From IMG/VR virus record IMGVR_UViG_3300028394_000034: a DNA stretch of 64,000 nt, one strand, 5' to 3'. Below are positions 32,636 to 53,155 of this stretch, piece after piece. A program made the position numbers and the translations under genes. The notes beneath the pieces are model-generated. The model saw only the letters and a program-made list of their open reading frames with translations. It made no database searches and was not told where the DNA came from. Every line of letters starts with the position of its first letter. Positions within the stretch are counted from its first letter, which is position 1. The DNA comes from a virus.

Positions 32636-34542
32636 TTAGGCATGATAATGCTCCTCTTCTGTGAGAGTAGCAGGCCCATTAAAATCTTCCCAATTTTCCA
32701 CTAGCACTTCTGGTGCTTCTTTTCGTATCTCTGCTTCTAAGGCATAATTAGATTCTTTATCTTTTTCATGTTCAAGATAGTCTCTTAATCTATCTTTGAT
32801 TTGCATGAAGTCTAATTCACCCAGAATCTGATCAATATACTTTCTTTGAACTTCCTTACGATTGTTCTCACTAACATATCTAGTACGCATATTACACCTC
32901 ATGGTTAAAAGTTAAAAACAACTCTTTGCCCATGATTCCACTAGTCCTGCATCTGTCTCACCACATGCTTGGCTACTGGCTTCGTTGACTATTGTATTAT
33001 ACCAGAGAGAGGTGGTGGAGACAAATACTATTTCTTATTTGGGCCGCATAAACTCGCTGACTATAGCCACCTTCGCCAAATCTATAGTATTAGGTGAGAC
33101 TAAAAGCCAAGTCCTGTATCTTCATCATCCATATAATTATCTGCTATGAAATTAGTAAAATTTTCTTGCTGAATTGGTTTCTTAATAAAAACTATTTCTT
33201 CTTCGGTATTAAAAATAATATCACAAACTATACTTCCAATACCAATAAGAAATAAGAATAAGATGCCAACTAGTATGTAATAACCTTCCATAAGATTTTT
33301 CTTTCTTGACAGACCCCCTTGGAAATGGTATATATTATGCAGGTGCGTATGATTAATAGAGTTAAGAAGTTAGAGAAGAGTATACTACAAGTAGTAGCTT
33401 CTATGATTCTAGAGTATCTACCTTAACAATATTCTCAGGACCTATCTCACCAAAAAACTCAGGGTCTTCATACATTTTAATATTTAGATAATTGCAAATC
33501 TCATTTCTGCTCAAGCATTCACAATCATCATTTGGTATGGCCAATTCCATTTGTATGGTAACAACCCGGATATTCTGATTTTTATTCATAGATATTTAGT
33601 TACTAAACCCCTGAGTTACTCCAAAGAAAATAGCGGCACAAAAGAAGATTCCAATCATAATGTTAATCCTAAGAAGAGGAAGTTGACCGCTCGCGCCATC
33701 GACCTTAGTATACCATATCGTCACATTCGACGCAAATCCTTGAGACCAAACAACTTACAATACTAACTGATCTCTCACCGCCAGTTACTATTCTTTGACT
33801 ACCTCCTTTAATTTTTTAGTAATAGTATCGAAAGTTTTATGAACAGGCCCAGTAACAGTATAGTCACTCATATAAGCTTTGATAGCATCCATTAGTTTCC
33901 ATGCTTCTTGTTTTGTAATATCTATTTGCATTAATAGTCTCCTTAAAAATTCCTAATATCAATATCCCAATTACTCTTAGCAAATCGTCTAAGAGGATGA
34001 ATAGCCTTTTCACCAATATGTAGTGAATAAAATGGCTTACTCTTATCTGATGGATATAGTTTAGCAATACTACCATCACCATGTTCGATAGTAAAACCTA
34101 GCTTCTTAAACTTCCGCATGATCTTATCAATGTTCATCTTTAGTTCTCCAGAAGGTCAGGATAATAATCAACAATCTGTTCTTCCAACATCTTATTAGTC
34201 AACCCACTCTTATTATCCACAAGCATCTGATAAGCAAAAGTATACAGAGTATTAAAGTCCATATCATCTAAAAGCCTATGGCAATAGACTGTTGTAATAT
34301 CACCCCTATTCTCATCAGTAATCTTAGAGCAACTCATTATTAGTCTCCAATACTTGTGGGTTATATTCACTAAATAACTTTTTCAACTCTTTATTAGTCA
34401 TACTAGATAATTTATTCTCAATACCCTCCCTAACAATACTCCTAAGAGTACCCATATCCATCTGATCCACAACAGATTCAGCATGTTTTGATATGAGAAA
34501 ATTCCTGGTATTATTATCTACCTTAATTTTTTCTTTCTGCAT
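32636..34542 (-). CDS. Small-ORF region including three paralogs (32636-32902, 34140-34370, 34324-34542)
   Basis: Shared pattern (I/L/V)(L/V)(D/G).(M/L)D(F/M)..(L/I)...........(S/T)N..L......P.(V/L)L. Confidence 0.6.
33943..34137 (-). CDS. Possible HicA-like small protein
   Basis: KKLGFTIEHGDGS...YSLHIG resembles the HicA fold; a weak match. Confidence 0.35.
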   Translation of the reverse strand: MNIDKIMRKFKKLGFTIEHGDGSIAKLYPSDKSKPFYSLHIGEKAIHPLRRFAKSNWDIDIRNF

Positions 34543-34902
34543 AAATATCTCCTGCCCAAAGGGGTCTGGAATTCTCGCTGACTATCGCCACGACCGCAAT
34601 TCTGAAGGATAAGCTGGTACAGAAGATAGGTCACAAATAAACTGATGATTAATCTCTTTATCACCACTTATATCAATCTGGCTGTTCATAAGTCAAATAT
34701 GATTTTAACGTAAGTCCTTACCAGCACACCACTTACGTCTCATTGTATCGTCACTTACGTCAAGTGTCTACACCCTAAGTACGAGATTCTTTGACAAACT
34801 TTCCGTAAGTCGTTGGTACCAAATAACTTACAAAAATCGCGGCGGGCCGGGTTTTCCCTAAGTGCTTTATTGATAAGGGTTTACGTCAAGTGGTCTAGGT
34901 AC

Positions 34903-34940
34903 AAAAAAAGAACCGCCACCCATTGCTGAGTGGCGGCTCC
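34903..34940 (-). terminator. Rho-independent terminator after the DUF932 gene
   Basis: GAGCCGCCAC...GTGGCGGTTC followed by T7. Confidence 0.8.
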
Positions 34941-34964
34941 CAAGTCAACCCCCATTGCGAGGGA

Positions 34965-35990
34965 TTAGAGTGCCTGAGCGAACTCCATAGCCTTCTCCAA
35001 CGCTTTCGTGTTGTCGTTGGCGTTGAGTCCGAACCACAGGCTGTCGAGACGGTTATCTTCCGTTCGACCCTTGTTGTAATTCAGATACTCGTTGTAGCCG
35101 TTGTACGCGGCCCACCAAGTTCCACGAACACCCGTCGCACTCTGCTTCGGGCCTTCGACCAGATTCAGAATCTCGTCCATAATATTACGGGTACGAGTCT
35201 TGATCTGATCGTCCGGCGTACCGTCAATGTCGAGCATCGCCTTGACATAGCGACGAACGTCGGCCTGATTGAAATTCTTGGACGCAAGGAATTTGAACTG
35301 CTCCGCAGTCGCTTCAAACTCCATGTTGATGTTGTCCATAATATCTCGCACATTTTCCAGATTGGTCTTGCTGGAACGGGTGTGACGAATACGAATCAGC
35401 TTGGAACCACTGCTCTTGCTATGGGCCATTGCCATAGTATTAGCACACACAACGCGGATCGGCGTATAGCCAACCCGAATAGCAGTCGTGCCATCGTGCG
35501 AGTTGCTGAGAAGAATAAACTTCCCAACCTCGTCACCCTTCACGATCTCGCTATTGTCGCGGTTCAGTTGGGCCAGCACCCAAACCTTCTGACCGCTGTG
35601 GAGCGAACCAGCAGTATGCAACGCACACTCGCCAGCGTCCAGAAACGGCTGGAACCAATCGAACGCTTCGCTGTTTTGCAGCGGAGTGTATCGTGGGCCG
35701 ACAACGCCCAGAATACTATCGTCGGTCTTGCGATAGGTTGCACGAGCCGGAACGGGTTGATTCGTTTCCAGCGTGATCAAATCTCGCAGACCAACTTCCC
35801 AATCCAAACCGGCGGCAGTCATCGCCTCCGAAACCGTGGGAGCCTCGTCGAGCTTGTTGCCCAAACCGTGCCACGGGGTCGCACCAACAAACATCATCTG
35901 TTCAACTGCATGAGCCATAATCATCCCTTTCGTGTTACTGTTCAATCGTTCTACTCCACTCATTCTACAGTATGTTATCGTCACTGTCAA
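34965..35990 (-). CDS. DUF932-family (TIGR03299-like) phage/plasmid protein; real start probably MAHAVE
   Basis: PWHGLG, YTPLQN, TAGSL..GQKVW, LLSNSHDG, TPIRVVCANT, IRHT and GTWWAAYNGYNEY. Confidence 0.9.
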   Translation of the reverse strand: MTVTITYCRMSGVERLNSNTKGMIMAHAVEQMMFVGATPWHGLGNKLDEAPTVSEAMTAAGLDWEVGLRDLITLETNQPVPARATYRKTDDSILGVVGPRYTPLQNSEAFDWFQPFLDAGECALHTAGSLHSGQKVWVLAQLNRDNSEIVKGDEVGKFILLSNSHDGTTAIRVGYTPIRVVCANTMAMAHSKSSGSKLIRIRHTRSSKTNLENVRDIMDNINMEFEATAEQFKFLASKNFNQADVRRYVKAMLDIDGTPDDQIKTRTRNIMDEILNLVEGPKQSATGVRGTWWAAYNGYNEYLNYNKGRTEDNRLDSLWFGLNANDNTKALEKAMEFAQAL

Positions 35991-36078
35991 GCGAAAACTT
36001 TGGAAAAATTCTTTTTGCCGTAAGTCGTTGGTGTGTAAGCACTTGCGTCAAACGCGGCCGGCCGACCTTTCCCTAAGT

Positions 36079-36618
36079 CTAATCAGGATAAGGGTTTACG
36101 TAAGGGTTTAGAATAACTGTCCCAAACTGCTTCTCAAAAAGTTTAGAATTGGAAGCATTGTAGGCACACTCCTCACCCATGTAGAAATATGCACCAATAC
36201 ACTTTGCTCGTGGAACATCATCATGAATATTATTCATAATGCGTTTGATTGTGCCGCCCGAACAAATCAGATCATCTAAAATAACATAATTAGATGGAGC
36301 AACACCTTCAATAAAAAATTCACTATATCGTCGCTCACCTTTACGAACAACAATAATATTCTTATTTAGAATCTCTGCAATCTGTGGCACTACCATAAGA
36401 CCACTCACCCCACAGCAGGCGATACTATCAAAATCTTTTTCTATCTTACGCAGAGAACAGATAGCCTTGATAATCACACTATTTCTATATTTGTGATTTA
36501 ATACTCTACTAGTATGAGCAGCACCTTGAATGATCTTACCATCTGGGGTACGACGAAAATCATCAAGCTCTTGCTGGAAAGCGTTCATAAAAGTGTGTGG
36601 CCGGATTTGAACCGACAA
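36079..36618 (-). CDS. Type I phosphoribosyltransferase
   Basis: YVILDDLICSGGT PRPP-binding motif; also IIVVRK. Confidence 0.8.
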   Translation of the reverse strand: MSVQIRPHTFMNAFQQELDDFRRTPDGKIIQGAAHTSRVLNHKYRNSVIIKAICSLRKIEKDFDSIACCGVSGLMVVPQIAEILNKNIIVVRKGERRYSEFFIEGVAPSNYVILDDLICSGGTIKRIMNNIHDDVPRAKCIGAYFYMGEECAYNASNSKLFEKQFGTVILNPYVNPYPD

Positions 36619-36915
36619 TCCCGAGAAGAAGAAAGGAATAAAGAATAGGGTCTAGTCCCACCTAGAAGCACACACAAAAATCAATCTTGTTCATCTTCAA
36701 TACTAGGATAGTAATTCCTACCATATGAAGGAACCTCATCATCTTCCTCAGAATCTTCATAACCATCCATCCAAGGTTCTTCGTCCAGACCAAGATCCTC
36801 GGTATTTTCTACCAATTCATCGTAGTCATAATTATAACCATCGTAGTGATCTTCATATCTCATAATCATTCCCTTTCTTACCTCTATTCTACACCAACAA
36901 TCAACAACTGTCAAG

Positions 36916-36988
36916 TGGGCCCTCGGGGATTTGAACCCCGAACCTAAGAGTTAAAAGCTCCTTGCTCTGCCAATTGAGCTAAAGGCCC
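36916..36988 (-). tRNA. tRNA-Lys(UUU)
   Basis: Cloverleaf; anticodon loop CTTTTAA. Confidence 0.92.
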
Positions 36989-37290
36989 ATCTAGTTATTC
37001 GTTTACGGTAATTTCCTCGTAAGAATAACTTTGGACACTCTCGGTTGTAAAATCATAGAGCTTATCGAATACATCCGACCATTCAAAATCCTCTTGCATG
37101 GATAGTTGAATGTCTGCCAGAGTTTTACCATCCTCGGTCACAATGTCGTAGATACGAAGATTCTTCATACAGTTTCCTTTCTTGTTCCAACAGTCTACCA
37201 TACCAATATCGTCCTGTCAACACCCAAAACTTTAGGATTCTCGCTGACTATTCCCACAGCTTCCAAATCCGCAGGATTAGCAGAAACAAA

Positions 37291-37362
37291 TGACCCCACG
37301 GAGAATCGAACTCCGATCTCCACCGTGAAAGGGTGGCGTACTAGCCGTTATACAATGGGGCC
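37291..37362 (-). tRNA. tRNA-Glu(UUC)
   Basis: Cloverleaf; anticodon loop CTTTCAC. Confidence 0.92.
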
Positions 37363-37400
37363 ACACTCGCAACTCAACATCAGCCTCCGATTCTTAAAAG

Positions 37401-37485
37401 CGGCTGGAACAGGATTCGAACCTGTGGAGGATTTCTCCTCGTCGGTTTAGTAAACCGGTGCATTAGACCGCTCTGCCATCCAGCC
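37401..37485 (-). tRNA. tRNA-Ser(ACU), long variable arm
   Basis: Anticodon arm CCGGT-TTACTAA-ACCGA; variable arm GAGGAGAAATCCTC; G73. Confidence 0.85.
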
Positions 37486-37489
37486 AAAA

Positions 37490-37561
37490 CTGCCCCGGTA
37501 GGATTCGAACCTACAACCTCGATGTTAACAGCATCTTGCACAACCGTTGTGCTACAGGGCA
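37490..37561 (-). tRNA. tRNA-Asn(GUU)
   Basis: U1-A72 pair; anticodon loop CTGTTAA; G73. Confidence 0.9.
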
Positions 37562-37896
37562 TCATGTATTTCTTTATGACAGTTAGAGCATACTAAAATG
37601 CACTTGTCTGCCTCTTCTTTCATTCTATCTAGTTTTAATGTATTGCCAGTGCTTCCAATCCCAAAGTCTTTCTTAGATGGGTCTAAGTGATGAAACTCTA
37701 ATGCGGCTAGACATTTGTTATATCCGCACCTCTCACACTTACCTCCTTTATATTCAACTAATAATGATTTGACTTTTCTTCTTCTTTTAGATACGGCATC
37801 TGAGCGACATTTTGTACAGCGATATGCACCACGACCCTCAAGCACATACTTGCATGAGCCGTGTGTTTTACACTGTTTTTCTATATATTTTTCCAT
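37552..37896 (-). CDS. HNH endonuclease inside the tRNA cluster
   Basis: CERCGY...LEFHHLDP...CILVCSNCHKEIH. Confidence 0.85.
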   Translation of the reverse strand: MEKYIEKQCKTHGSCKYVLEGRGAYRCTKCRSDAVSKRRRKVKSLLVEYKGGKCERCGYNKCLAALEFHHLDPSKKDFGIGSTGNTLKLDRMKEEADKCILVCSNCHKEIHDAL

Positions 37897-37937
37897 GGTA
37901 TAACTCCGGTTGTTATACCATTTAATACACCAAATAA

Positions 37938-38008
37938 TTCCGGGACTAGGATTCGAACCCAGACAAAGAGAACCAAAATCTCTGGTGCTACCGTTACACT
38001 ATCCCGGA
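37938..38008 (-). tRNA. tRNA-Gln(UUG)
   Basis: Cloverleaf; anticodon loop TTTTGGT. Confidence 0.9.
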
Positions 38009-38009
38009 G

Positions 38010-38081
38010 AGCCGACAACAGGACTTGAACCTGTAACCTACTGATTACAAATCAGTGGCTCTACCATTGAGCTATGTCGGC
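38010..38081 (-). tRNA. tRNA-Thr(UGU)
   Basis: Cloverleaf; anticodon loop TTTGTAA. Confidence 0.92.
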
Positions 38082-38912
38082 AGTCTATGTATTATAATCA
38101 ATAGTCTCCATAATCGCAAGCCCTACGCTTTTCAGCGGATCGGGTTCGCAGACGCTTGGGGCGATTGTCCATAATAGTATTGCGGTGTTCCTTGTGACCC
38201 GTAGGAACTTGCCACTGCGGCCTGACCTTGATCTTGATATGGTTGCGGCGTGGTCTGGTATCGTCGTTGTTGTGGAGCGTAATCATGCCATTGTCCGTTT
38301 TCGTGTAGGTAAAAAACTTTGTCAATATTAGGGTCGTAAGCCATCAGACAGTATTGTACCGGATAAGTTGGTTTTGTCAATACCTGTTTTTGTTGAGAGG
38401 GATGACGCAGTGGCGGAATTTTAATATCACCTTTTTGATAATCTTTTACACCAGTATACGCCAAACCAACAATCGTAATCAGAATCCCGATCCATTGTAT
38501 CATAATCTCAGTCCTTGTCAATATCCTTCTCGTTCTCATATCTATATTATCGACCAACCACCACCAAATACTTTAGAAGTTTTTTGGAATTTCTCTAAGT
38601 CCTTATGCTGCAACAACTTACGTCAAAACCGGGCGGCCCCGCTTGCCCTAAGTGCTTACGCACCAAGGGTTTGCGGCGAGTCTTATTCAATACTCCATCC
38701 TGCGTCTTTTAGAATATGGCTAGTATGCAACACACAAGTTTTACCATCAGCATTTTTATAGTCTCTATATCCACGCTCATCAAGATAGATATACTCATCT
38801 AGTGTATCATTTTCATTTGTTTCCCAGATAGCATCCATAGCAGCATATCGTGGAGCCTTATCACAAGAGTAAATTAGTTCCAGAGTTCCACACTTGATAT
38901 AGTATTTGCTCA

Positions 38913-39506
38913 TTATTGTTCCTCCCGGAACTTTTGACATAGAACACAATTACATCCCCCGTAATCATCAAACTCGACAGCATCATCAGCATCATAATCA
39001 AACTTCCCATAAATATCTTCATCCCATTCAGTAAAACTCTCAATACCAAGATCGATAACAACCGCTACCCATTTTCCCTTGCGTCGAATATAACCAAAAT
39101 TACCACTATGGGCATCATTATAGTCTAATCCGTGTTCACTCAAATCATGAACTACTTCAGAGATAGCAGTACCGTTTTTACATTCAGACCACTGAAAACA
39201 ATCACCAGAACAATCTTCATCATTACACTCTGGCATAGGCCGAGCAACTTCGGTCAAATAACCATAAAAAGTCATTTCGCCATCATGTTTACGAATAAAA
39301 CCAACATCCCCATATACCATAGGGGCCAAATCAAACTGAGCCAGATGCTTTTGAACCCGATGGGCAAACTTAGCTTCCTGCTCATTCTCAAACTCTTTGA
39401 AGCCCACACGCTTCCGGCCAATCTTTTTATCTTTGATAATATAGAAAGCGTTCTTGCTTCCTGCATCATCATACAATCCAACGTAGCTCATTTTTATTCC
39501 TTTCAA
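38913..39506 (-). CDS. Minimal protein-kinase-like protein (paralog of 4228-4782)
   Basis: VGFKEF, LAPMVY, YGYLTEVA, NDAHSGNFGY and VVIDLG. Confidence 0.6.
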   Translation of the reverse strand: MKGIKMSYVGLYDDAGSKNAFYIIKDKKIGRKRVGFKEFENEQEAKFAHRVQKHLAQFDLAPMVYGDVGFIRKHDGEMTFYGYLTEVARPMPECNDEDCSGDCFQWSECKNGTAISEVVHDLSEHGLDYNDAHSGNFGYIRRKGKWVAVVIDLGIESFTEWDEDIYGKFDYDADDAVEFDDYGGCNCVLCQKFREEQ

Positions 39507-40207
39507 TGGGCTGGAAACAAGACATTAGCTAAACCACGAACACACAAGTCACATGATATACTATCTTTGGTTCCGGTGCAAGTGATTTCTGCACGACCAC
39601 GACGGATTTCGGGGCATACCACAAACTTTGTAGCATTGAGAACAACCAGCTTGGGCAGTGCTTTTCGCCATGCTTCGGCCTTGACTTTGCTCTTAGGACG
39701 CTTGGGAGCAACTTTCATGTCACTATCGCACCATGCAAACAACTTGAAACCTTGTGCCAATGCTTCGCCCATATCATTATCGTCATGCACACTAGCATAT
39801 ACATTCATATACTTTTCCAGACTCACAAGCCGAGCATCGTAGATATGAGTATAAAACCACATATCGGGCAAAGTATTACCATCGGCCAGAATACTCTCAC
39901 AAGCCCATGTTACATTCGCAACATAGTCTAGGTCAAGTTCTCCATTGAGAAACCAGTCGCCACGTTCATGCCAGCGAATAGACTTCTCACGACGCTTTGC
40001 TTCCAGAATCATAGCACGGATTTTATTCTTCTCCGTGATAACATTAGCAAACCCGGCAGTACGAGCATTTTTATACTGATTCTCGGTCGCTTCGGCATAA
40101 CAGCCGTTACCAAGATAGTCACAATCGGGAGGACAAGTATCGCCAACCGGACGCGAAACTACAATACAACCCTTACCCAACTTATCATTACCATCAGCAG
40201 TTTTCAT
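39503..40207 (-). CDS. GP88-like protein with a radical-SAM-like Cys cluster
   Basis: GNDKLG, TCPPDC...GCYA, IRWHERGDW and WFYTH. Confidence 0.6.
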   Translation of the reverse strand: MKTADGNDKLGKGCIVVSRPVGDTCPPDCDYLGNGCYAEATENQYKNARTAGFANVITEKNKIRAMILEAKRREKSIRWHERGDWFLNGELDLDYVANVTWACESILADGNTLPDMWFYTHIYDARLVSLEKYMNVYASVHDDNDMGEALAQGFKLFAWCDSDMKVAPKRPKSKVKAEAWRKALPKLVVLNATKFVVCPEIRRGRAEITCTGTKDSISCDLCVRGLANVLFPAH

Positions 40208-40510
40208 GTTCTTCTCCTGTGTCTACCGATTCTACACTATAGTATCGGCATAGTCAAGCGAAAAACTTGGAAAAATTATTCTTGATGCAAGTCGTTGGTA
40301 GATAAGGACTTACGACGAACCGGGGCGGCCGGACTTGTCCTAAGTGCTTATGCAGTAAGGGTTTATGACAAATAGCCCCAAGAGGAATCGAACCTCTAAT
40401 AATTCTTTAGAAGAGAATTGTTATGTCCATTTAACTATGGGGCCGTCAATACCGCAAGCCCCCACAGCGTCCTGTGGAGGCTCGCAGTCATTATAACTCC
40501 ATAGAGTCGA

Positions 40511-43500
40511 TCACGCAACCGTCTCGACTTCCTTCTCTACCTTACCATCATGGGCATCACCCGCAGCTTCCGCAGTCACACCCGTAACCCTAGCTCGCCA
40601 CACCTTATACCCCTGCTCACTAAAAGCCTTGATACCAGCGGGCTTGACATTCGCATGAACATCACCAGGAAGCTCATCATTCAACGCCTTGGTCAGCGTA
40701 GCCACAACATCAGCCGAATCAATCTCGTCGCCAACAATATCAACCGCAAAGCTAAACTTCTTCATCTTACGTTCTCCAAAAAGTGTTACAGTTACCAATC
40801 GTTCTAGTATCAGTATACGTTACTGTTACCCACTTGTCAAGTCCGTCGTGATGGTTTCTAGTGTTGGCATCATCGCGGAGTCTTGTCTCGTGATACTCCC
40901 ATTCTACAGTATAGTATCGTCATTGTCAAGCAGGAACTTGAGTGAGCCTCAAAGATTTTTGATTTTGTCCTAAGTTCTTTCCAGATAAGGACTTACATCA
41001 AATTCGGCGGGCCGGCCTCTCCCTAAGTTCTTTAGGGACAAGGCTTTAGGTCATGAGAGAAAACCCTCACAACCCAAGGTGGTCAACTCACGCAGCAGTG
41101 CCTCTGCCGCTTCCGGCGTTTTCAGAGTCATGCTGTGCTTAACGCCTGCTGGTGCTGGATGCCACTTGTCGTACTTCCAGCCACCAACCAGATAATCACT
41201 CCAATCCTTGGCTTCCTTCAGACCCCATCCGGTGTGGAGGCGAATAGCCTTGATGCAAGGGATGCGATTGTCCAGATTCATACCACCCGTGATCGTCACA
41301 ACACGTCGCTGGTTCACACCCAGTGCCACCTCCAACGCACACACAATCTTGTCGAACATATCCAGACTGCAACCGTTTGCAATCATGTTCAACGACTCAC
41401 GGACGCTCAGTTCGATCTTGATCATAAATTCCAAAACTTTCTGTATACTTAGGGTCTATCTCGTAAATACCGTCAAAATTTCCGTCACGTTCTTCCAGAA
41501 TATGTACCTGTCGCCCATCGGTAACTAAGGTATCATACTCACTGTTATCCCAAACAAACTCACCACCATCACTCTCCCTACGCCAATGTACGTCTTTGAT
41601 TGGGTTATAATACAACTTCTCAAGATTGTCAATAGGTAAAGAGGGATAAAAATCCTTGCGAAGCATAACCTCCTCGCATTGTACCCAACCACTAACATTC
41701 TTTTTCTGTTTCTTATTGACCCATTTTGCCCTAGCTACCTTATTTACCAGTTTGCAACCACGCATCTCCAACTGGTATTCTGTAGGGTCTACATAAAATT
41801 GGTCAACCCTTTTCTTACCTTGCATCACGTTTACCTGCCATTTTTTATAATTAGGCCCGTTTAGTAGATGAAATCGTACTTCGGCGTGTTTTTCTACCGT
41901 TTTCATTTACCTCTCCAAAGAACAACACAATGCGTAATCTCATCTTCAGTAGGACCGAAAGACATAGAATGTCGTCCATTATACCAGCTAATCTTCTCTT
42001 GTCCATCCCAATTATCATTTAGACGAACAGCAGTATTAGGTCTAATTTCAACATTATCATATCCACACTCATAACCCGGCACCAGTACAAGCATATCTTG
42101 GGGTAGCTTGTTAAGTTCTTCGATCAATTCAGCAACAGTCATCATATTCCCTTTCGTGTTACCACTATCTTACACTACTATTATCGACAAGTCAAGAGGA
42201 AATCTTGAAAAAATATGGCTAATCGTAAAGTCTTTAGAGATAAGGACTTACGGCAGATTTGGCCGCCCGCCCTTGAGCTAAGTTCTTTAGCACCAAGGAC
42301 TTATGTCAACCACTAGGATAATCGGGTGGAACTGGTCGGCTAGGCTTTTCTGGCTTCTTAGTAATACCTTCCTCATAAGGCATCCACCACGGAGCATCCA
42401 TACGGTCTACAAGACCAATAGATTCATGGCAAATTAAAATATGAGGACTAACAGGATCGTCAGCATGATATTCATAATGACCAAGCCACACACCAATATG
42501 TTGCCCGTAATAGAATATCTCTTGATAATCTTTTGGTTGCTTCTCAAAAAAACTAATCCATTCCATTATTTATATACCTCTATTTGCCACCGATCATACT
42601 TCAATTCAGCCGTTACACTCATGCCCAACTTAACCAGTTCAGCCACAATTTCGGCCAAACGCTCAATCTCATTAATATTTAAGTAGATCATTATATCCTC
42701 AATGTCATCTTTTCCCACACTTCGATCAAATCTTTAGCAGTTATACCATGCTCCTCTGCTAAAGTCAATGCTTCATCCCTATTAGGTTTACACATCACCA
42801 TCATGGCGCTTTTCAAAACTTTCAGAATCTTAATAATCGCTTCATCCTTGCTCATAGAAAGCCTCCCTCTCTGCATATACTTCTGCCACTGCAATTCTAA
42901 CTTCTATCCAATCTTCTAGAGTATCAAAACTCTCAAGGCTTTCGGCCAACTCACTATCCTCATAGCATTCCACTATGTATTGGCCCCAACTCGTATAATT
43001 ATCTTGGGCGAGTTGTTTTGCTTCAGCAATCAGTTCTTTTGTAGCAATCATTATCTTTCTCCTTTGTATTGTATACCGGGTGTTAATGGATCGACTTATC
43101 GAAGCGACGGGACTTGAACCCGCAACACCGCCACATATAGTGTGGAACTCTACCAATTGAGTTACGCCCGACGATAGTTTTACGAATAATGTCCGGTATC
43201 ACGCATTATCCAACCCAGCCAGTAAACTTGGTTTCTATCCGACCCCTGTTTGTAAACGTGGTGAGGACGCGATCCCCCATAGATTGGTACTACTATCCAA
43301 CGTACAGCCCCGTTGGCAACCAACTATAGACATTATCCATAGCCGGTTTATCGTAGTAGGCTATCCCAACCTAGTCCAAGGCATGGACCCACGAGTTTTG
43401 TATTGTAAAGCAGATAGGGTTGAGCCATACTCGACAGCCATTTAACCGTGGCTACTTTGATATCATTCTGCCAGCGGCCGCTATCTGCTTATGTGCTAAG

Positions 43501-46500
43501 TATACATCTATTATCGTCACTTGTCAAGAGCTATCTATAGGAATTCCAAAAATTTTTTAGAGTTGATGTAACCCTATGATACACAAGCACTTACGTCAAA
43601 TTCGGCCGCCCCGCCTTACCCTAAGTTCTTTAACTATAAGGGTTTATGTCAAGGGTCCCATGTTCTGGCTGACTATACCCACTCAGCCCAAATCCGTAGG
43701 ATTAGGCGGGACAAACTTTAGAGATTCGCTCAATGAGCAAATTATTTCCATAAAGTTTCTCAGCCTGACGCAAAGCATGGTAGGTACTGTACGCTTGAAC
43801 ATACCCAACAATCTTGCTGCCCTTCATTACCATGTAGGTATCGGTACTCATTCGTCCTCCACTAGTGCAGGAAACATTCTATCCCAAGACTCACTATCAA
43901 TTCCCGTTTTGAGAATCTCACGATCATCAGCATTGAGATACGGGAAAGCAGTTTGAATCAACTCTCCATTGACCCAACGCTGGGCATCTTCAAGCTTAGT
44001 GACTATGGAAAACTCACGAAGGCCAGTAGACAACCCACTGAACTCAATCATATCCACACCGTCCACAGTCTTGATCGTTCGCGTTGTCCGATTTGTCAAA
44101 GCATATGGCGTAAACAGCATCTTTTTCTCCTTTAGGTTCCTCGTATTGTACACTACTAATATCGGCGTGTCAAGAGAAAAACTTTGAGAAAAATTATGTG
44201 ACGTAAAGTGTTGATGAATAAGGACTTACATCAAACGCGGCCCGCCGGCCTCGCCCTAAGTGCTTTCGCAGCAACGACTTAGGGGTTGGTCAGCTTTTAG
44301 GCAGTACCTGCTATCTTTTAGAGCAGGCTAGCGACTCCACTCTTGAACAGAACCTTAGCAAGCAAAGGCTTTCGGCAGTTGCTCACACGCTCTGCATAAA
44401 AGTTACGAATCTTACCGTCAGGAGTCTGGCAAGTCACCAGATTCGCAGTACGAATGAACTCAGGATCACCGATACGATATCGGCTCTTGCGATTCAACCT
44501 CGCAATCTGGTCAGCAGTCAACGTCTGCTTGCCAACAACCTTAGCAAGAAAACGCTCATGCGTTCCATGCAACGGCTGCTGATAAACAAAGTTGTAAACC
44601 TGACCATCCTTAGCATTCGCCAAGCTGGCCTTGCTTCCACCGTAAACGGAATAGAAGACAAACCCTACAACAGCACAAGTAACCGCAAACAGAATACCAG
44701 TCAACACAACAAAATCACTCATAAGAAACCCTTTCAAATTGAAAACCAATCTAACATCCATGCCACAAGTCTACACTATATATCGACCGTTGTCAAGCAG
44801 AAACTTTAGAAAAATTTTCTTCCCAGTATTCTGCCATTTCAGCCATGTTGATACCGCTATCGTTCCAAGCAACTCCATCCGAAGTTTCATATCGGATTCT
44901 GGTCTTTTCAAACATTTCACGAAGAACAATTCTGAAATGACTGAAACATTCGCATTGTTTAGCGATACCGTACAACATTTCATCATTACTGATCCACAAG
45001 CAAACATTCCACGTTTGATAGTTTGCGTAACCGTTATAGCTTCCGTCCGGACTCATGCTTCACTCTCTCTTTCTTGTATACGTCATTCTACTATACAATA
45101 TCGTCTAATGCAAGGGCTAAACTTGAATCTTACAAGATTGTAAGGATCGACGTAAAGCGTTGATACATAAGTACTTACGACGAAGCCGGCCCGCCGCGTC
45201 GGCCCTAAGTGCTTGAACACAAAGGGTTTACGACGAGTGATAGTTTACTCAAAATCAACAAAGATAATTTGAGCATAACCGCGAGGCTTGACGGTATATC
45301 CGTCTCCGTAATCGCACGTATCAGCCTTGACCGCTGTCATACCAGCCAGAGCCTTAGCCTTACGAACAACGCTACGCTGGCTAGCATTCTTCTTGGGGAT
45401 AAACTCGTAACGATTCACCCAGCCATAGTTAGCTTCGCCACCAAACGTATCCGTATGAGTCACAACACACTTCATTTTGCCAATTCCTTTGCTTTCATGG
45501 TTTCAAAATACAACTGTTCCAACAACTTAACTCTACTTACTGCACGACCAGCTTCACGATTCATGAGTATAACAGCTTTTTCGTGTGCTGTCAATACCTT
45601 CTTTTTCGTTTTCATTTCAGTCTCCGTAAGTATCAGAATCGTTCATGTAAATTAATCGACCAACTCGGTTAGAACAATTATATTCCTTATTCCAACCAGC
45701 TTCAATTTCTGGAGACTTTTCAGGCAAGCCTACAGACTTACGATATTCAATCCATTTTTCTTCATTAGTCATTTCTGCTCTTCATCTTTCTTTAATGGGC
45801 CACGATAGCCTTTAAATCTTTTCAACTCACCATAGTAATTACGACCAGCAGAACCGTGTTGAGTCTTTTTCTTTTTAGGCTTTTCGTACATAACCTTCAA
45901 CAAAAATTCATAGTGTAAATCCATTTTATACTCCTAACCAAACATCTCATATTCTTCATCAGTCAATGCTACCTCATCTGGACGATAACAATTGTTGCCA
46001 TACAGATCACGATTCTTAGGACGCTTTTCCCATTCATCCATGAATCGGTTATACTCTTCGATACGCTTTTCTTCTTCACTTTTCATCATTCACTTTTTCT
46101 TTCTCTAATACCTTATATCGACAAGTATAGCAGACAATCTTTAGCTGTCAAACAGAAAGTTTTCTTACAATATCGTAAGGTTGGCGTAAAGTGTTGGCAT
46201 ATAACGACTTATGTCAAATTCGGCCCGCCGCGCCGGCCCTAAGTGCTTATGCACAAAGGGTTTACGGCGAATTTTCAATCGTCGTATGGGCCATCATCAT
46301 TATAATCAACAAATCCGACAGCTTCATCAGCGTGGAAATCTTCCTGGTAATCTAAATCTTCCCCGTAATAGCCGTAGGACTCATCCATTCCATGTCCTGC
46401 GGAAGCCAACGCAGATTCAGCATCACCATCCATACTATCATCAAACGAATCATCCTCAACCTCATAATCGGAAAGGTCAGTGTCCATGCACTCACCGTAG

Positions 46501-49500
46501 AAATCTTCAACATCGTCGTATTCGTAGCTCATGGTCAATCCTTCACAATGGTAGTAATGTAGAGCAGGCCAACATAGGACGCAACGAACGCAATCGCACT
46601 AAGCATCAATATACTCCTCTGGAATGAAATCGTCAACAGCACCCACCACTTCTGCCCAATCCCAAAAATTCACTTCCACGCTGGGATCGTCAATCGGCTC
46701 GACCATCGGTTCCACAATCCCCTTTTCGGCCATGTCGTTCAGAATGTCATTGATCTCGTCGAAGTTCAGCATGATTCTGTTTCCTATGGGTTTCCTTGTG
46801 ATGCTTCGATTATACACTTATCATCGACATATTGCAAGCCCCCCATAAAATTTCTTTCCTTATATTTTTGTAAGGTTCGCCGGCTATCGTTTGGCACGGC
46901 ATTTGCTGTTGGGGGGTTTTCGTAAAGTGTTGCAGGATAAGCACTTATGGCTCGCTGGGCCGGCCGAACTCGACGTAAGTCCTTATGAGTTAAGGAGATA
47001 CGTCAAGCCACACCCAAGAACAAAAGCTGTACCTAATAGAATATAATCACTAATTTTCATCATTTTCCTCCATATACATGATATGTGACATACTAGCAGA
47101 GAGTAAGATACCGACAATATAACCAAAAGCAACGCTAATAAAATCAAATTGATACATCCCTGTATCTCCAGTGTTATTGGGTCAATCCCCATATCCTACC
47201 CAGAACTCATCACCATTTTCATCTTTCATAAGAGTAAAGCCCCTAGACTTCATCCTCTCATATTCACCAAATCTCTGCCAGACTTCACAAATCGTTTCCA
47301 TACACTTGAGCATCATCCCCATAACCCACACAAACGGATATTGAATCATTCTCATAACCCTCTCCTATTCTGCACCATTCTACACTATTGTTATCGACCC
47401 GTCAAGGGCCCCGACTTTAGGCTGACTATACCCACCCTACCCAAATCCGTAGGATTAGCTCGGACAGTTATCTGTCCTTACTTGACAGACTCCATGTGTT
47501 CAAACGTGATGCACTTGTCCAGATAGATCGACCGATACCCCTGTTCGGCCTTGACCGTCAGGAGAACACGATCTCCAAACCCACGCACATTGACAACTTC
47601 ACCATTGACGATTTCACCGTTGTCATAATCCGCAAAAACAAAGTCACCGATTTTCATTGTTCTACCCTTTTCCTTTTCTCTTACTTGTTATATCGACATT
47701 ATACCAAAGGATATTTAGCTTGCAAGCGAAAAGTTTCCTTACAATTCCGTAAGGTTCGCGGAGAAAGTTTGGCACACCATTTGCTATAGAGACTCGACGT
47801 AAAGTGTTGGCACATAAGCACTTAGAGCAAATTCGGCCCGCAAAATTCGTCGTAAGTGCTTTAGCAGCAAGGGTTTACGACAAGTTTTTGAGTTTGCGCC
47901 TGTACACCCGTTTACCATCCACCCAAATGGGGAGGTATAGCTTAGGGTACAACTGAACATATGTATTCTTTACTAGACGCTCAGTCTCTAGTGTAACGTC
48001 GTACACTAGTATACAGTTGTTCATTCTTCCCCCTTGAAGCTGAACGGGCTGATTTCGAGATGAGCAACAACACCGTATTGCTTGGTCAGTTCCTCGACAC
48101 GTTCACGGCTACCCGGCTTACCAACCGGAACGATCATGGTATCCTCGCTACCGATCATCCGCGGGTCAACCTTTTCCATCTTGCTCTTGCCCATATTCTT
48201 CAATGCTGTCCGATTGAACTTCAGAACCTTTTCCACTTGGATCATCTCACCGTCGATGTCTTTCACTTCGGTAGGAATCGCCATACCAAGAAAGCACAGA
48301 CGGGCTTGACGCTTGGCAGCTTGAATGATCGGGAACTTGGTAGCCATGTTTCTTATCCTCTAGGGTTATCGTTCTCTTGTGAGTGTATTATACCAAACTG
48401 ATTTTCAATGTCCAGCAAAATCTTTCCTTACATTTTCGTAAGGTTTCTCGTCTCTCACACAGGAGTCGGATTCGACCGGTAGTATTTTGCCCACAGATCA
48501 TCGATCACGAACTGGACAACGCGATCATGTGAACCACGGCAGACATAGTAGCCCATGTGGATATCGAACAGAGCAAACGATCCATCCTCTTTCGGATGAA
48601 ACGTAAACCCACACTTGTAGGCGTAGGCGTTGATCTTACCCTTGACAGTCGAACTTTTCGGAGGCTTTCTCATTTTCATTCCTTCTTTCTTCTCTTGTTC
48701 TTATATCGACATTATACCATACCCTCTTTAGGTTGCAAGCAAAATCTTTCCTTACAAAGTCGTAAGGTTTGCCGGCCGTATTGGCACAGCATTTGCTATA
48801 TGCAATTATCATGCCAAACTTTTTTGGCACAGCATTTGCGTTACCGCTTGACGTAAAGTGTTGGTATATAAGCACTTATGGCAAATTCGGCCCCGAAAAT
48901 TCGTCGTAAGTCCTTTGGTATCAAGGGTTTACGTCGAATCTTTTGTACACTACTATACTACTGTATAGTCATCCCCTCGATATAGGGGAATACCTTACCA
49001 TTTGTATGTACGTTCCACTCTCCCTTTACTTGTCGAACATATCCCGGAATATACTGATTTATCCTATCCTTAGTCGTTGGGGTATACCATCCCCCTGTTC
49101 GTAGGGTATAGGTATTATCCTCATGGATTGTGACCACATATGTACTGTGGAGCATTACCCCTACGCTACCATCTGGCATAATCTCAGCATATGTATTGTT
49201 ACCAATCTTTCGGGATTGCCGGCCCGTCTTACCATGTACCATCTTTACTGCTTCAGTGTGTGTCATTTTGCTCACCAGCTTTCGCTGATCATCCCTAGTA
49301 ATTGTTGAAGAAACTGTAGAATCTCTTTTATGTTATATGTGGCATAATCCACATAACCATCGGGCAGATACCTAGACATAATTTTCTCAGTCGTTGTCGT
49401 GAAGGATGGAATGGATAGCGTTACCTACCTCGTGGGCAGTGTAAGACATGAAACCAGCAAAACTAATCAGGGCAAACAGCTGAACGTATTCGATAGGCGT

Positions 49501-51284
49501 AATCATTTAGGAGTCTCTCTTTCTTGTTTGTCTATTATACAGTATCGGCTATTCTCTTGTCAACCACTTAGAAATTCCAAATGCTTTTTGAATTATAGGG
49601 GAGCAGATCGTCAATCGGGAAGCCCGTAGCTTCTGCAACAATCTTTCGGGCTACCATCCAATCGGCGGCGGATGCTTGACCGATAAACTTGTGATCACCA
49701 TAGCTGAAGAAGTAAAACGTTTTCATTTTCTTTTTTCCTTTTCTCTTGTTTCTCTATTATACTCTATCGGTTATTGTCTTGTCAACTCTTGAACCTTGCA
49801 ATGTCGTAAGGTTCAGGCAAAATCCTCTTCACCAAAGAAATCATCGAGCCATTGGTCATCAGTCTCGATATGATCCTCAGTATCCCCCATAATGGGGTCC
49901 CAACCTTCCCCATCGTCAAGGCCCGGAATGTAGTCGGCTTCCATGCTATCGTCTGCAATGATCGTGCAATGCTCACCACACTGGGAGCAAATCTCATGAT
50001 CGACATTGCTTTCAGCATTGCAGCAATCGGAAACGTATAAGGTATTCTTTTCCATTTTCTTATCCTCTTTTCTTTCTTGTTCTCTTTTCTCTTATATCGA
50101 CATTATACAGTAGATTCTGAAACATTCAAGCAAAATCCAAAAAGATTTATGTCAAGAGATTTTGACAAAACTTTTCATCATTTTCTATACGATTGGCATA
50201 CCATTTGCTCTATGCAATTATCGTGCCAAACTTTTTTGGCATGAAATTTGCTGTGTGTTAAGATAGGTAAGATTGGGCCAAAAACGTGTCGTAAGTCATT
50301 GCAGCATAAGCACTTACGACGAGCCGGCCGCCGCGAATTTGACGTAAGTCCTTTATCCATAAGGGTTTGCATCAAGCCGGCCAGTATACAAGCGTATACC
50401 CTACAGAATAGAGTATAATTCCCCTACGATCACAAAGAACCTATACGCTAGAACAGTTAGCAGTATACAAGCGATCAGGTCTACAATTATCATGATACCA
50501 ATTCCTCTTTTGCTTGAAGTGATTCCACAAGAGCCCAACATTCATTGAACGTAATATGTCGGGCGATTACCACCCCACCATACCATACCTCATACCGATC
50601 CCCTGTCCGATTGGAAGTATTCCAGTAGATCATTTTCTTTTGCATGGCTTGTATCCTCTTTTCCGTATTGTATACGTTGTCCGTTTAGGTGTCAAGCGGT
50701 AGCCAAATAATTGCAAGAAACACACTTGTCGAGATACATTGAACGATATCCAACATTCTCGATTTTCAACGTGAACAGGAGTCGATACCCTTCCATATAC
50801 TTGACGCTCACGATTTCCCCAACAAACTTTTCACCCGTAGCATATTCGACCGAGACGTTGTATCCGATTTCCATTTTCATTTCCTTTTCTTTATCGTTCG
50901 TTTCTTGTTTCTGTATTATACTGATCGGCTTTTTTGTTGTCAATACCTTAGAAAATATTTTTACCGATAGATTCCATCGTTGATAACGTATCCGTCATTA
51001 TCCACTTCGATGAACTCTCCTTCATCACCCATCGGAAAGAAATATTCGATCATGTTTCGATTATTCTTCGCTTCGTCAAGCAGTTCTCCACCGATTGCAT
51101 ATTCGGTACCAACCAGAGTATCCAGTTCAATCGAATTGTTGTAGAGCACTTCGTTCAGTTCTTCCCGATTCATGATGATTTTCGTATTCTTCATTTTCTT
51201 ATCCTTTTCTTTCCTTGTTTTCTCTTGTGCTTTCATTATACAGTATTTATCGACCACTTCAATAGGAAAAATAAAAAAATCCAA
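40511..51284 (-). CDS. Early-region modules of small hypothetical proteins, each behind its own promoter
   Basis: Minus-strand ORFs at 40511, 41397, 41903, 42306, 42691, 42842, 43848, 44318, 44793, 45245, 46275, 46599, 48021, 48455, 48958, 49813, 50692 and 50961. Confidence 0.6.
41051..41434 (-). CDS. Ribosomal protein bL12 (L7/L12) C-terminal-domain-like protein
   Basis: RIPCIKAIRLHTGWGLKEAKDW matches the bL12 pattern KI.VIK.VR..TGLGLKEAK; also AEALLRELTTLG. Confidence 0.7.
   Translation of the reverse strand: MEFMIKIELSVRESLNMIANGCSLDMFDKIVCALEVALGVNQRRVVTITGGMNLDNRIPCIKAIRLHTGWGLKEAKDWSDYLVGGWKYDKWHPAPAGVKHSMTLKTPEAAEALLRELTTLGCEGFLS
43099..43171 (-). tRNA. Degenerate tRNA-like element; identity cannot be assigned
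   Basis: D-arm ACTC-AATTGGTA-GAGT and T-arm GCGGG-TTCAAGT-CCCGT are intact. The anticodon arm CCACA-CTATA-TGTGG lacks U33 and a 7-nt loop, and the acceptor stem is bulged. Confidence 0.6.
43172..43492 (-). ncRNA. Candidate ~320-nt structured non-coding RNA
   Basis: No ORF in the track; consensus sigma70 promoter directly upstream; many hairpins including a 10-bp AAGCAGATAG/CTATCTGCTT stem. Confidence 0.55.
45128..49811. promoter_or_regulatory. 7 copies of the palindrome CCTTAC-N6-GTAAGG upstream of -35 boxes
   Basis: Starts at 45128, 46163, 46858, 47737, 48426, 48750 and 49794. Confidence 0.75.
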
Positions 51285-51334
51285 AATATATTTTCATGCC
51301 AAATAACTTTTTTCTTTTTGGCACACCACTTGCG
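46891..51334. promoter_or_regulatory. Nine sigma54 (RpoN) -24/-12 boxes
   Basis: TTGGCAY-N5-TTGC with GG-N10-GC spacing. Plus strand: 46891, 47769, 48781, 48824, 50193, 50236, 51318. Minus strand: 48801-48817 and 50213-50229. Confidence 0.8.
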
Positions 51335-51674
51335 TTAAAACTTGACGTAAACCGTTGGCACATAAGCACTTACGACGAATTTTCGGGAGAGAGATCATCA
51401 TAAGTTGTTTATTTTCATATACTTACAGCTTAGGGGGTTTTTTTGTTTTAAATAGGCTAGGTAAATTGGGGAAGAAAAACCTGGGGTGGTCCAAACATAG
51501 TAAGCGACCTCCAGTATAATTGGCCAGTTTAATGACCACTTATTCTTTATTATATACTGATCCCATTAATCATATATCAAAAGCCCCCAATCTTTCTAGA
51601 ATATCATCGATCAACAGGGGGTATTTTACCAGCTAATTGAAAAACTAGAACGACCCATCTCTGATCCATAAAAT

Positions 51675-51708
51675 AAAAAAAAGAGGCAAGCATTTCTGCC
51701 TGCCCCTT
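51675..51708 (-). terminator. Rho-independent terminator
   Basis: AGGGGCAGGC-AGAAAT-GCTTGCCTCT followed by a T-tract. Confidence 0.75.
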
Positions 51709-51735
51709 TTAAAAGCCAGTAAGCTTTGATAGATT

Positions 51736-52258
51736 TCAGTAATTATAGACTCTATAACTCTGATAATTCACAACCGGAGTTGTTACATATTGAATATTAG
51801 GAACCACCACATCAGTATAATATACTGGTCTAGTAACCATTACCTGAACAGGAACCATAACCACCATTGGAACTTGAACAGCCCCATAATAAACTGGAGG
51901 TTGAGCAACCAATGGAGCAGAGTATACAGGAGGTCTAGGATGATGCTTTTGCCAACAACTTTCAAAACCAAAAGTTTCATTCCCATAACATAACCCACCT
52001 AACACTGCACAAATTAATAAAATCTTTTTAGTCATTGTTTCAACCTTCTGAGTTGATTTGGATTGTACTATTCTTCCTTGGACGACCACGTTCCTTTTTC
52101 AAACTCAACTTCCTACGTTGACGACGAACCATAGCTGTTGTTACAGATTGTCCCGTCATCTGACTAAGCTTACCAGCTAAAGCCTCATCGTTAAACAAAA
52201 GATGGTTATTTTGAATATAGTCTGTTTCTGTACTTGTCCACTTTTTATAATTGGCCAT
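51736..52258 (-). CDS. Signal-peptide Pro/Val/Tyr-rich protein (51736-52089) and a small basic protein (52040-52258)
   Basis: MTKKILLICAVLGGLCYG signal-like start. The second ORF has KKWTSTETDYI and an AT-hook-like RGRPRK. Confidence 0.55.
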
Positions 52259-52462
52259 AAATTTTGATCCTTTTCTAAATATTGACTAAAACCATATTGA
52301 CATTATTATATTAGGTATTGACAAGTTTCGCGCAAGGAGATTTTATGACAAGCAACGACCTTAATCTGATAGATTCCATTTTGACAGTAAAGGCTTCTGG
52401 CGTAGAGGATGTTTCTAAGGATTTGAACCTCCCCGAAGGAAAGAGTATAGCAGAACTATTAC

Positions 52463-53155
52463 ATGACCAACAAAAAACCGACAAAATCGACCAAACCTAA
52501 AATATCAGATAAAAATAATAGTGATTTACCAAATGGCGTTTCTCAAGAAGAATTTCTCATAGTATTGGATAACATAAGCAAAAGACTTGGCCACAAATTC
52601 CGCTTCGGTTATCACGACTTTGATGATATGAAACAACAAGCTGCCATATTCGCTATGGAAGGCTTGGAAAAATACGATAATAGTCGCCCATTAGAGAATT
52701 TCTTATGGACCCACGTAAGAAATCGCCTCTTTAATTTTAAACGTAATAATTATCAAAGGCCCGACAAACCCTGTTTTACCTGTCCATTATTTGATAAAGC
52801 CTATAAATGCTCTAACAATCAGTGTTCAAAATACACAGATAAGAGTGAGTGTGAATTATATTCATCTTGGGCAACACGAAATGATGCCAAGAAGAATATT
52901 ATGCAACCTTCCCATATCGAACATGACATCCACCACTGCAAAAACCAAAATTTCACCACATTAATTCAAAATCAAGAGATTATTAAATTTCTAGATCAGA
53001 ATATCCAGTCAGAACATAGAGAATGTTATCTCAAATTGAAGCATGGACACAAAATTCCCAAGCAACAGCTTAATAAATTACAAAAACATATCTCAGAACT
53101 AATGGAGAAAAAAGAGTGGCAACAAATAACGCCCCCCGAAAACGAGGACAATTAA
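52463..53155 (+). CDS. Sigma-70 family (ECF-like) phage sigma factor with a Cys-rich insert
   Basis: Region 2-like DDMKQQAAIFAMEGLEKYDNSRPLENFLWTHVRNRLFNFKR; first large gene of the late module. Confidence 0.65.
   Translation: MTNKKPTKSTKPKISDKNNSDLPNGVSQEEFLIVLDNISKRLGHKFRFGYHDFDDMKQQAAIFAMEGLEKYDNSRPLENFLWTHVRNRLFNFKRNNYQRPDKPCFTCPLFDKAYKCSNNQCSKYTDKSECELYSSWATRNDAKKNIMQPSHIEHDIHHCKNQNFTTLIQNQEIIKFLDQNIQSEHRECYLKLKHGHKIPKQQLNKLQKHISELMEKKEWQQITPPENEDN

Follow-up and report, generated by a model that had tools for sequence, protein, structure and literature searches.

Fifteen 82-bp double palindromes, putative four-half-site operators, between the early gene modules of an uncultured phage

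The phage and its early region

The subject of this study is an 82-bp double palindrome that is repeated fifteen times between the early gene modules of an uncultured phage. The stretch of DNA analysed (the window, 64,000 bp) is the reverse strand of positions 45155-109154 of IMG/VR virus record IMGVR_UViG_3300028394_000034, a record of 199,884 bp with direct terminal repeats that is estimated to be complete. The genome encodes rIIA, DNA ligase, terminase and a portal protein. A near-identity search against 50,697 cultured-phage records returned no near relative, and the terminase reaches ~22-25% identity at best with cultured phages (Bacillus, Clostridium and Microcystis phage proteins). From ~52.4 kb leftwards in the window the genes lie on the minus strand. 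The G+C content of the early region (34-50 kb) is 41-45%, as compared to 31-37% in the rest of the window, and ~30 near-consensus sigma70 promoters are found there on the minus strand. Only two intrinsic terminators are present in the 18 kb around the array of double palindromes.

Architecture of the 82-bp element

All fifteen elements that the first-pass annotation had described were found, and they align over 82 columns without a single gap. Each consists of a left palindrome (columns 1-29), a GC-rich core (columns 30-53) and a right palindrome (columns 54-82), and in each palindrome two inverted arms of ~11 bp enclose a 7-bp spacer (11-7-11). The half-sites follow each other in the order outer TAAgtcgTTG, inner TAAGTcCTTA, GC-rich spacer and then the mirror image, with the dyad of the whole element at column 41.5. 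There is a systematic difference between outer (TAAgtcgTTG, TAAacCcTTG) and inner (TAAGTcCTTA) half-sites, and conservation is higher in the inner than in the outer ones, in a pattern that is mirror-symmetric. The spacing of the two palindromes is 53 bp in each of the 15 copies.

From left to right the elements occupy 34804-34885 (copy 1), 36019-36100 (copy 2), 38594-38675 (copy 3), 40286-40367 (copy 4), 40969-41050 (copy 5), 42224-42305 (copy 6), 43567-43648 (copy 7), 44202-44283 (copy 8), 45151-45232 (copy 9), 46185-46266 (copy 10), 46921-47002 (copy 11), 47798-47879 (copy 12), 48852-48933 (copy 13), 50290-50371 (copy 14) and 51346-51427 (copy 15, the head of the array). The core of copy 15 is not GC-rich, as had been reported, and its right palindrome is degenerate too; the first element of the array in the relative G004 likewise has no GC core. 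The solo 29-bp palindrome claimed at 34709-34737 is real and covers ~+5 to +33 of the promoter at 34770-34742 (minus), and a second solo palindrome at 33731-33759 abuts or overlaps the -35 region of a TGnTATACT promoter that was read by eye. At two or fewer mismatches the arm motif has 49 matches in the window, against 13.8 ± 3.9 (maximum 23) in shuffled sequence. With a position weight matrix (PWM) of the 29-bp palindrome we found 31 sites in the whole genome, all of them at window positions 33731-51374, and none in the shuffled window, which confines the element to the early region.

The element belongs to a large family. A pattern scan of IMG/VR gave 117 loci, and a PWM built from the 15 copies retrieved 238 further non-identical 82-bp copies in IMG/VR relatives, which form arrays with one copy per 0.6-2 kb on contigs as long as 230 kb. 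Each complete relative has 16 copies, as compared to 0 for a reversed control pattern. The relatives were scanned for single palindromes, so that the spacing was not imposed by the search; even so, of 270 close pairs of neighbouring palindromes, 253 were spaced by 53 bp, 14 by 52 bp and 3 by 54 bp. Beyond the 53-bp pair no long-range periodicity between palindromes was seen. In 100 aligned copies the positions A4, A5, T11, T25, T26, A57, A58 and T79 are invariant, and the other columns drift freely.

A second dispersed intergenic repeat, GGCTGACTATACCCAC ... CCAAATCCGTAGGATTAG, occurs at 33036-33101, 34562-34591, 37223-37288, 43648-43713 and 47401-47466, and one of its copies directly adjoins element 7.

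The elements stand in helical register with sigma70 promoters

Read along the sense (minus) strand, a module ends with its last gene, which is followed by the element, then by an A/T-rich UP-like tract and then by the -35 box of the next promoter, in agreement with the first-pass annotation, which had placed the elements between modules and upstream of sigma70 promoters. Among the 14 copies that have an upstream stop codon, the element starts 0-35 bp past it in 13, sometimes overlapping the gene. Thus the right palindrome of copy 2 overlaps the final codons of the open reading frame (ORF) at 36079-36618 (minus), and copies 5 and 6 adjoin the stop codons of the ORFs at 41051-41434 and 42306-42566 (both minus); the gene for an arginine transfer RNA (tRNA-Arg, 40373-40444, minus) ends 6 bp from the right arm of copy 4. 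The exception is copy 1, which lies 80 bp from the stop codon, with the intrinsic terminator of the upstream gene (34941-34908, minus) in between.

Each of the 15 elements has a sigma70-type promoter on the minus strand (score 9-11 of 12) at a distance of 29-161 bp. From column 1 to the T of the -35 box this distance is 29 bp for copies 2, 4, 6 and 8 (promoters 35990-35962, 40257-40229, 42195-42167 and 44173-44145), 34 bp for copies 1 and 10 (34770-34742 and 46151-46124) and 40 bp for copies 5 and 7 (40929-40901 and 43527-43499). The others are 38 bp for copy 9 (TTGCAT-17-TAGAAT with its -35 T at 45113, minus, read by eye), 73 bp for copies 3 and 12 (38521-38494 and 47725-47698), 84 bp for copies 11 and 15 (46837-46809 and 51262-51235), 114 bp for copy 13 (48738-48711) and 161 bp for copy 14 (50129-50102).

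The same arrangement was seen in the relatives, where 138 of 201 copies have, within 250 bp, a sigma70 promoter that fires away from the element. The distances peak at 18-20 bp (13 copies), 28-30 bp (40 copies) and 39-41 bp (23 copies), forming a ladder with steps of one helical turn, and their periodicity at ~11 bp (R = 0.59 against a 99.9th-percentile null of 0.26) is pronounced, although this statistic overstates the independence of copies that are related by descent. Promoters on the other side of the element fall in the same 19 and 30 bp classes, as expected if the site is almost symmetric. When positions are numbered so that the T of the -35 box is -35, the centre of the half-site next to the promoter falls near -60, -70 or -81; the centres of the two palindromes fall near -68/-78/-89 and -121/-131/-142. 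In the relatives, the centres of solo palindromes lie at -100 to -71 from the nearest sigma70 start (26 cases) or at +10 to +29 (9 cases), and the solo at 34709 belongs to the latter class.

These positions also bear on the possibility that a bound protein acts as a roadblock or insulator that stops or buffers read-through from upstream, in place of a terminator, rather than controlling initiation. The close placement behind the stop codon in 13 of 14 copies speaks for it, as do the scarcity of intrinsic terminators in these 18 kb and the roadblock-like solo sites at +10 to +29. A roadblock, however, does not need a whole-turn register with the downstream -35 box, and at copy 1 it would be redundant behind a strong intrinsic terminator. 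We therefore regard this explanation as rather unlikely.

Promoter and element also seem to travel together. In the relatives the -10 sequence TAGAAT is found in 47% of the promoters within 60 bp of an element, as compared to 19% of those far from any element, which suggests that element and promoter have spread as one cassette, and in the window they are repeated jointly in the repeat families D5 and D10. We also observed an everted dyad, CCTTAC-N6-GTAAGG, at 46157, 46860, 47739, 48428 and 48752, which reuses the GTAAG core of the half-site. It lies between the -35 box and a sigma54 box, at ~-49 to -66 of the promoters 46151, 46837, 47725, 48414 and 48738.

The palindromes show no selection for base pairing

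Each palindrome can be folded, the right one on the plus strand by means of G.U pairs, and one of the suggestions made at the outset was that the elements are short two-hairpin RNAs; such structures could serve as small RNAs, processing sites, mRNA stabilisers or terminators. Analysis of the aligned copies spoke against this on either strand. The mutual information between supposedly paired columns did not exceed 0.11 bit, and the complementarity of the arms within a copy at variable positions was no higher than with shuffled partners from the same locus, for both local hairpins. Pair counting gave 78.8% paired cells as compared to 79.0 ± 0.4 after shuffling, with a covariation score of 0.122 versus 0.128. 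What look like G.U pairs in the right palindrome (plus strand) have their mirror image in A.C mismatches of the left palindrome, and because the half-site pattern is mirror-symmetric this asymmetry cancels between the strands. No T-run follows the dyads, a search of Rfam over 33000-53000 gave tRNA matches only, and copy 1 stands behind a sense-strand terminator. A long hairpin or cruciform of the whole element, pairing outer with outer and inner with inner arms, was also considered and rejected, as its within-copy complementarity was below the shuffled value.

The lack of covariation leaves an RNA or single-stranded DNA hairpin unsupported, and on the combined results of mutual information, within-locus permutation, pair counting and Rfam we discarded the RNA hairpins, a structured RNA being very improbable. 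Instead, each arm conforms independently to the consensus, which is the signature of recognition by a protein.

The arm geometry (11-7-11) is indeed that of tyrosine-recombinase core sites, as had been pointed out, but the likeness is one of geometry only. A search of all 199,884 bp of the complete genome with the profiles for Phage_integrase (PF00589) and Resolvase (PF00239) gave no match at E <= 0.1, and the arms are without the co-variation of attC-type sites. With neither a tyrosine nor a serine recombinase in the complete genome, site-specific recombination was rejected as an explanation, and the proposal of tyrosine-recombinase sites is not supported. From the absence of an integrase the phage appears to be lytic.

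A second palindrome type at the same junctions in sister phages

Several relatives with ~80% terminase identity have no TAAG-type palindrome upstream of the terminase. They carry an alternative unit of 44 bp, composed of CTGCCA-N3-TGGCAG, a 14-nt GC-rich core and again CTGCCA-N3-TGGCAG. This unit is present in 18 copies in the complete 224-kb genome G006, in 13 copies in G007 and in 12 copies in G008, and it is missing from a TAAG-type genome. The array of G006 lies at C1:21890-41870 (loci L216-L217). By median ORF identity to this phage G006 (57%) is about as close as the TAAG-type relatives G003 and G004 (59%).

The early region of G006 is colinear with the window, and its 44-bp elements are found at orthologous module junctions with homologous promoters adjoining. 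At the junction of modules 1 and 2, the site of copy 2, gene start and promoter align and the 82-bp element is replaced by the 44-bp element, at a distance to the -35 box of 25 bp in G006 versus 29 bp here. Because the same orthologous junctions are used, the two types are positional and presumably also functional equivalents. A whole array has been converted in concert. Such conversion is to be expected if the operators fit a trans-acting factor and are kept alike by recombination among cassettes, and the swap of types provides a natural specificity control. The G006 half-site TGGCAG also resembles the -24 element of sigma54 promoters.

Sigma54-like boxes near the head of the array

The sequence TGGCAY-N5-TTGC occurs ten times in the genome, and nine of these boxes lie at 46892-51333, next to the five elements that are closest to the array head. 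Seven are on the plus strand and point into the element, and two are on the minus strand, where they form +/-/+ triplets that are palindromic over 37 bp (48782-48839 and 50194-50251). Single boxes stand beside copy 11 (46892-46906), copy 12 (47770-47784) and copy 15 (51319-51333), all on the plus strand. The triplet of copy 13 consists of 48782-48796 (+), 48802-48816 (-) and 48825-48839 (+), and that of copy 14 of 50194-50208 (+), 50214-50228 (-) and 50237-50251 (+). In the relatives a box starts 22-32 bp before column 1 in 23 of 201 copies, and in G006 sigma54-like boxes likewise adjoin the 44-bp element type.

Both the clustering at the head of the array and the recurrence of the boxes in relatives, beside either element type, would fit palindromes to which an enhancer-binding protein of the host, or a phage stand-in for it, binds and thereby fires the adjoining boxes. 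As most boxes point into the element and not away from it, the transcripts would then be antisense to the early genes. FlrC of Vibrio cholerae reportedly binds downstream of sigma54 starts, which also speaks for this explanation. Against this, a box accompanies only 5 of the 15 elements here and ~11-14% of the elements in relatives; the boxes can thus explain neither most of the copies nor the phasing, which is to sigma70 promoters. Moreover, the palindromes (25-29 bp) are longer than usual sigma54 enhancer sites, which span 16-18 bp. Among the phage proteins there was no match to Sigma54_DBD, and a Sigma54_activat match was weak (12.7 bits alone, 21.7 bits with neighbouring stretches) and looks like a generic AAA+ domain, leaving no convincing phage-encoded sigma54 or enhancer-binding protein in the genome. 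In the literature we found no report on sigma54 promoters in phage early regions. We take the boxes to be a conserved companion of a minority of elements and keep the enhancer-type explanation alive as an improbable one.

A more far-reaching possibility combines these observations with the swap of types. The early region may hold an exchangeable cis/trans system, in which 15-18 operator modules are converted between two unrelated types, each with its own regulator, and which is wired to host sigma54 as an antisense switch for early shut-off. The boxes near the head of the array would fire antisense through the early modules once the protein bound to the element acts as an unconventional activator. 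We consider this scenario unlikely.

Candidate binding proteins

The first gene ahead of the array (52040-52258, minus) encodes a 72-aa protein, P0001, with a helix-turn-helix (HTH) domain and an AT hook, and an intrinsic terminator (51679-51710, minus) separates its operon from the array. The predicted structure shows a confident three-helix HTH (predicted local distance difference test score, pLDDT, 81.6) followed by the AT hook, and the HTH resembles the N-terminal DNA-binding domain of small terminases and the DNA-binding domain of GcrA. In all 43 relatives with enough upstream sequence the gene heads the array and lies upstream of the terminase by 2.3-4.1 kb, and more than 1,594 metagenomic homologues exist, every one annotated as hypothetical. 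P0001 and the element are both absent from two records, one a metagenome-assembled genome (MAG) in which a distantly related terminase is found, the other an unrelated phage contig. Helix 3 of P0001, M[IV]RRQRRKL, is invariant and identical in phages of either palindrome type. As the recognition helix is unchanged in the company of the CTGCCA-type element, P0001 was rejected as the specificity determinant and is probably not the binder. Besides the swap at orthologous junctions, this study thus contributes the finding that element type is not tracked by this HTH protein.

A 74-aa early protein (48455-48679, minus) behaves differently: it is 86-88% identical among three TAAG genomes and 52% identical in G006, where the genome-wide median is ~58%, and versions with 41-68% identity are found at other TAAG-type loci. 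It matched no family and no annotated look-alike. On this pattern of identities the protein may be regarded as a weak lead for a type-linked factor. The binder may also be a host factor.

Transcribed divergently from the early array, at 52463-53155 (+), is the gene for a 230-aa protein with a weak Sigma70_r2 match, which is probably the phage's own sigma factor.

Module shuffling and comparison with known systems

The early modules are mostly colinear among relatives, with some whole modules missing, extra or moved. In the closest relative, L010, a unit of tRNA, 82-bp element and sigma70 promoter (8339-8553) takes the place of 6 bp here (37392-37398). An element is present at 62 of 94 synteny breaks (66%) as compared to 82 of 180 colinear junctions (46%), in loci that are not independent. 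The idea of shuffling by cassettes of the PeSL kind was thus borne out in one part, as whole modules have come, gone or changed place and synteny breaks are more frequent at elements, and failed in another, that of a dedicated recombination site, since ordinary homologous recombination fits the data.

Could recombination nevertheless be the primary function, with the element as the target of a site-specific recombinase (loxP-, dif- or attC-like) or as a PeSL-like patch of homology? The recombinase-like arm geometry, the mobility of modules, the extra unit of L010, the enrichment at breaks and the conversion of the whole array in sister phages can all be cited in favour. Set against these are the missing recombinases and the arms that do not co-vary, as well as a synteny that is mostly kept and breaks that also occur away from elements; furthermore, purifying selection on specific bases and the exact 53 bp would be superfluous for mere homology. 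In our view this explanation is quite improbable, and we read the shuffling as a consequence of repeated cassettes and not as their purpose.

An HNH endonuclease of 114 aa (37552-37896, minus) is encoded among the tRNA genes. Its homologues in relatives have varied locations and orientations, and it is missing at this site in L010, behaviour that is in line with a mobile homing endonuclease. At 43099-43170 (minus) a weak Rfam tRNA match (33.9 bits) without an ARAGORN call may be a degenerate tRNA.

PeSL (promoter-early stem-loop) cassettes are units of promoter and stem-loop in T4-type phages, where they are associated with indels and module shuffling (PMC2839356, PMC4122927). The cassettes described here resemble them in that a near-consensus sigma70 early promoter with a dyad just upstream is repeated between small early or accessory gene units, at points of indel or replacement between relatives. 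The dyad of PeSL is, however, described as a stem-loop or terminator, whereas the dyads here are under no selection for pairing and lack a T-run; the 82-bp architecture with four half-sites, 53-bp spacing and helical register to the promoter is rigid, and by its terminase the phage is not T4-like, its best cultured hits being ~23% identical proteins of Bacillus and Microcystis phages. The element therefore answers to only part of the PeSL definition, that of a stem-loop or terminator being absent.

A functional parallel may be found in phage phi29, in which the sites of protein p4 are paired imperfect inverted repeats between the early promoters A2c/A2b and the late promoter A3 (PMC3100819). 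Common to both are imperfect inverted repeats of ~27-29 bp with conserved ends about two turns apart and two sites per region. The sequences differ, CTTTTT-N15-AAAATG there versus TAAGTCCTT-N7-AAGGACTTA here, as does the scale, with four sites in one control region versus 15 modules. The resemblance is one of functional analogy and not of homology. From upstream positions, protein p4 contacts the alpha subunit of the polymerase and in this way acts on early promoters that are strongly expressed.

Global regulators of other phages also use dispersed sets of operators, among them the C1 operators of P1, the gp71 stoperators of mycobacteriophage L5 and SPBRE of SPbeta. These too are many copies of one protein-binding motif at intergenic phage sites, but they are single short sites in temperate phages, whereas here the sites come in pairs, are phased and occur in the early region alone. 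With integron attC sites the element shares two simple sites (each an imperfect inverted repeat whose spacer is 7-8 bp) on either side of a central region, as well as a place between small gene cassettes. The two differ in that attC requires strand folding and IntI and conserves structure rather than sequence; here it is the sequence that is conserved, without covariation and at a fixed length, every cassette has its own promoter and there is no integrase.

A putative operator for early promoters

Taken together, the results lead us to consider it fairly probable that the 82-bp element is a four-half-site operator for a regulator protein, carried in a PeSL-like promoter cassette. Of the functions first suggested, cooperative operators for two dimers are favoured by the invariant half-site positions, the lack of covariation, the rigid five-turn spacing and the helical register with the sigma70 promoter. 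We infer that a sequence-specific protein binds the double-stranded element, most likely as two dimers, and as 53 bp corresponds to five turns these would lie on the same face of the helix. The element has the stop codon of one module on one side and the UP-like A/T tract plus -35 box of the following promoter on the other, and its placement at whole-turn distances would allow the bound protein to touch RNA polymerase at that promoter, probably via the alpha C-terminal domain or in the zone of the UP element. Since the promoters are near consensus and a few solo palindromes cover transcription starts, throttling, timing or shut-off of the early promoters by this protein seems to us likelier than switching them on. 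Element and promoter would together form a repeated cassette that, as a side effect, gives homologous recombination a foothold; through this homology modules could be gained, lost and moved, and a whole array could be converted to another operator type.

Several observations weigh against this interpretation. The distance classes of 34, 38 and 73-161 bp in the window do not all fall on the one-turn ladder, and half of the consensus promoters of the region work without an element. Element-linked and unlinked promoters match the consensus equally well (10.74 versus 10.65 of 12), the preference for TAGAAT at -10 being the one difference between them; as the linked ones are not weaker, dependence on an activator was rejected, and as they are neither weaker nor stronger the sign of regulation is a guess. 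P0001, the best candidate by position, does not co-vary with the element type, and a comparison of gene content between TAAG-type (G000, G003, G004) and CTGCCA-type genomes (G006-G008) yielded no clear DNA-binding candidate.

Beyond this genome, more than 545 terminase relatives in IMG/VR point to a very abundant uncultured clade, without a cultured relative above ~25% terminase identity; those in genome bins carry the labels of mixed freshwater and marine MAGs. A single rigid operator module seems to organise the whole early programme of these phages. As the element is sharply defined by its invariant bases, its five-turn spacing, its one-turn ladder and its second "allele", it can be tested with synthetic DNA and cell-free proteins, without culture of the host. 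The binder, if found, would be a new phage regulator and would provide a handle on early-gene timing in large phages from the environment.

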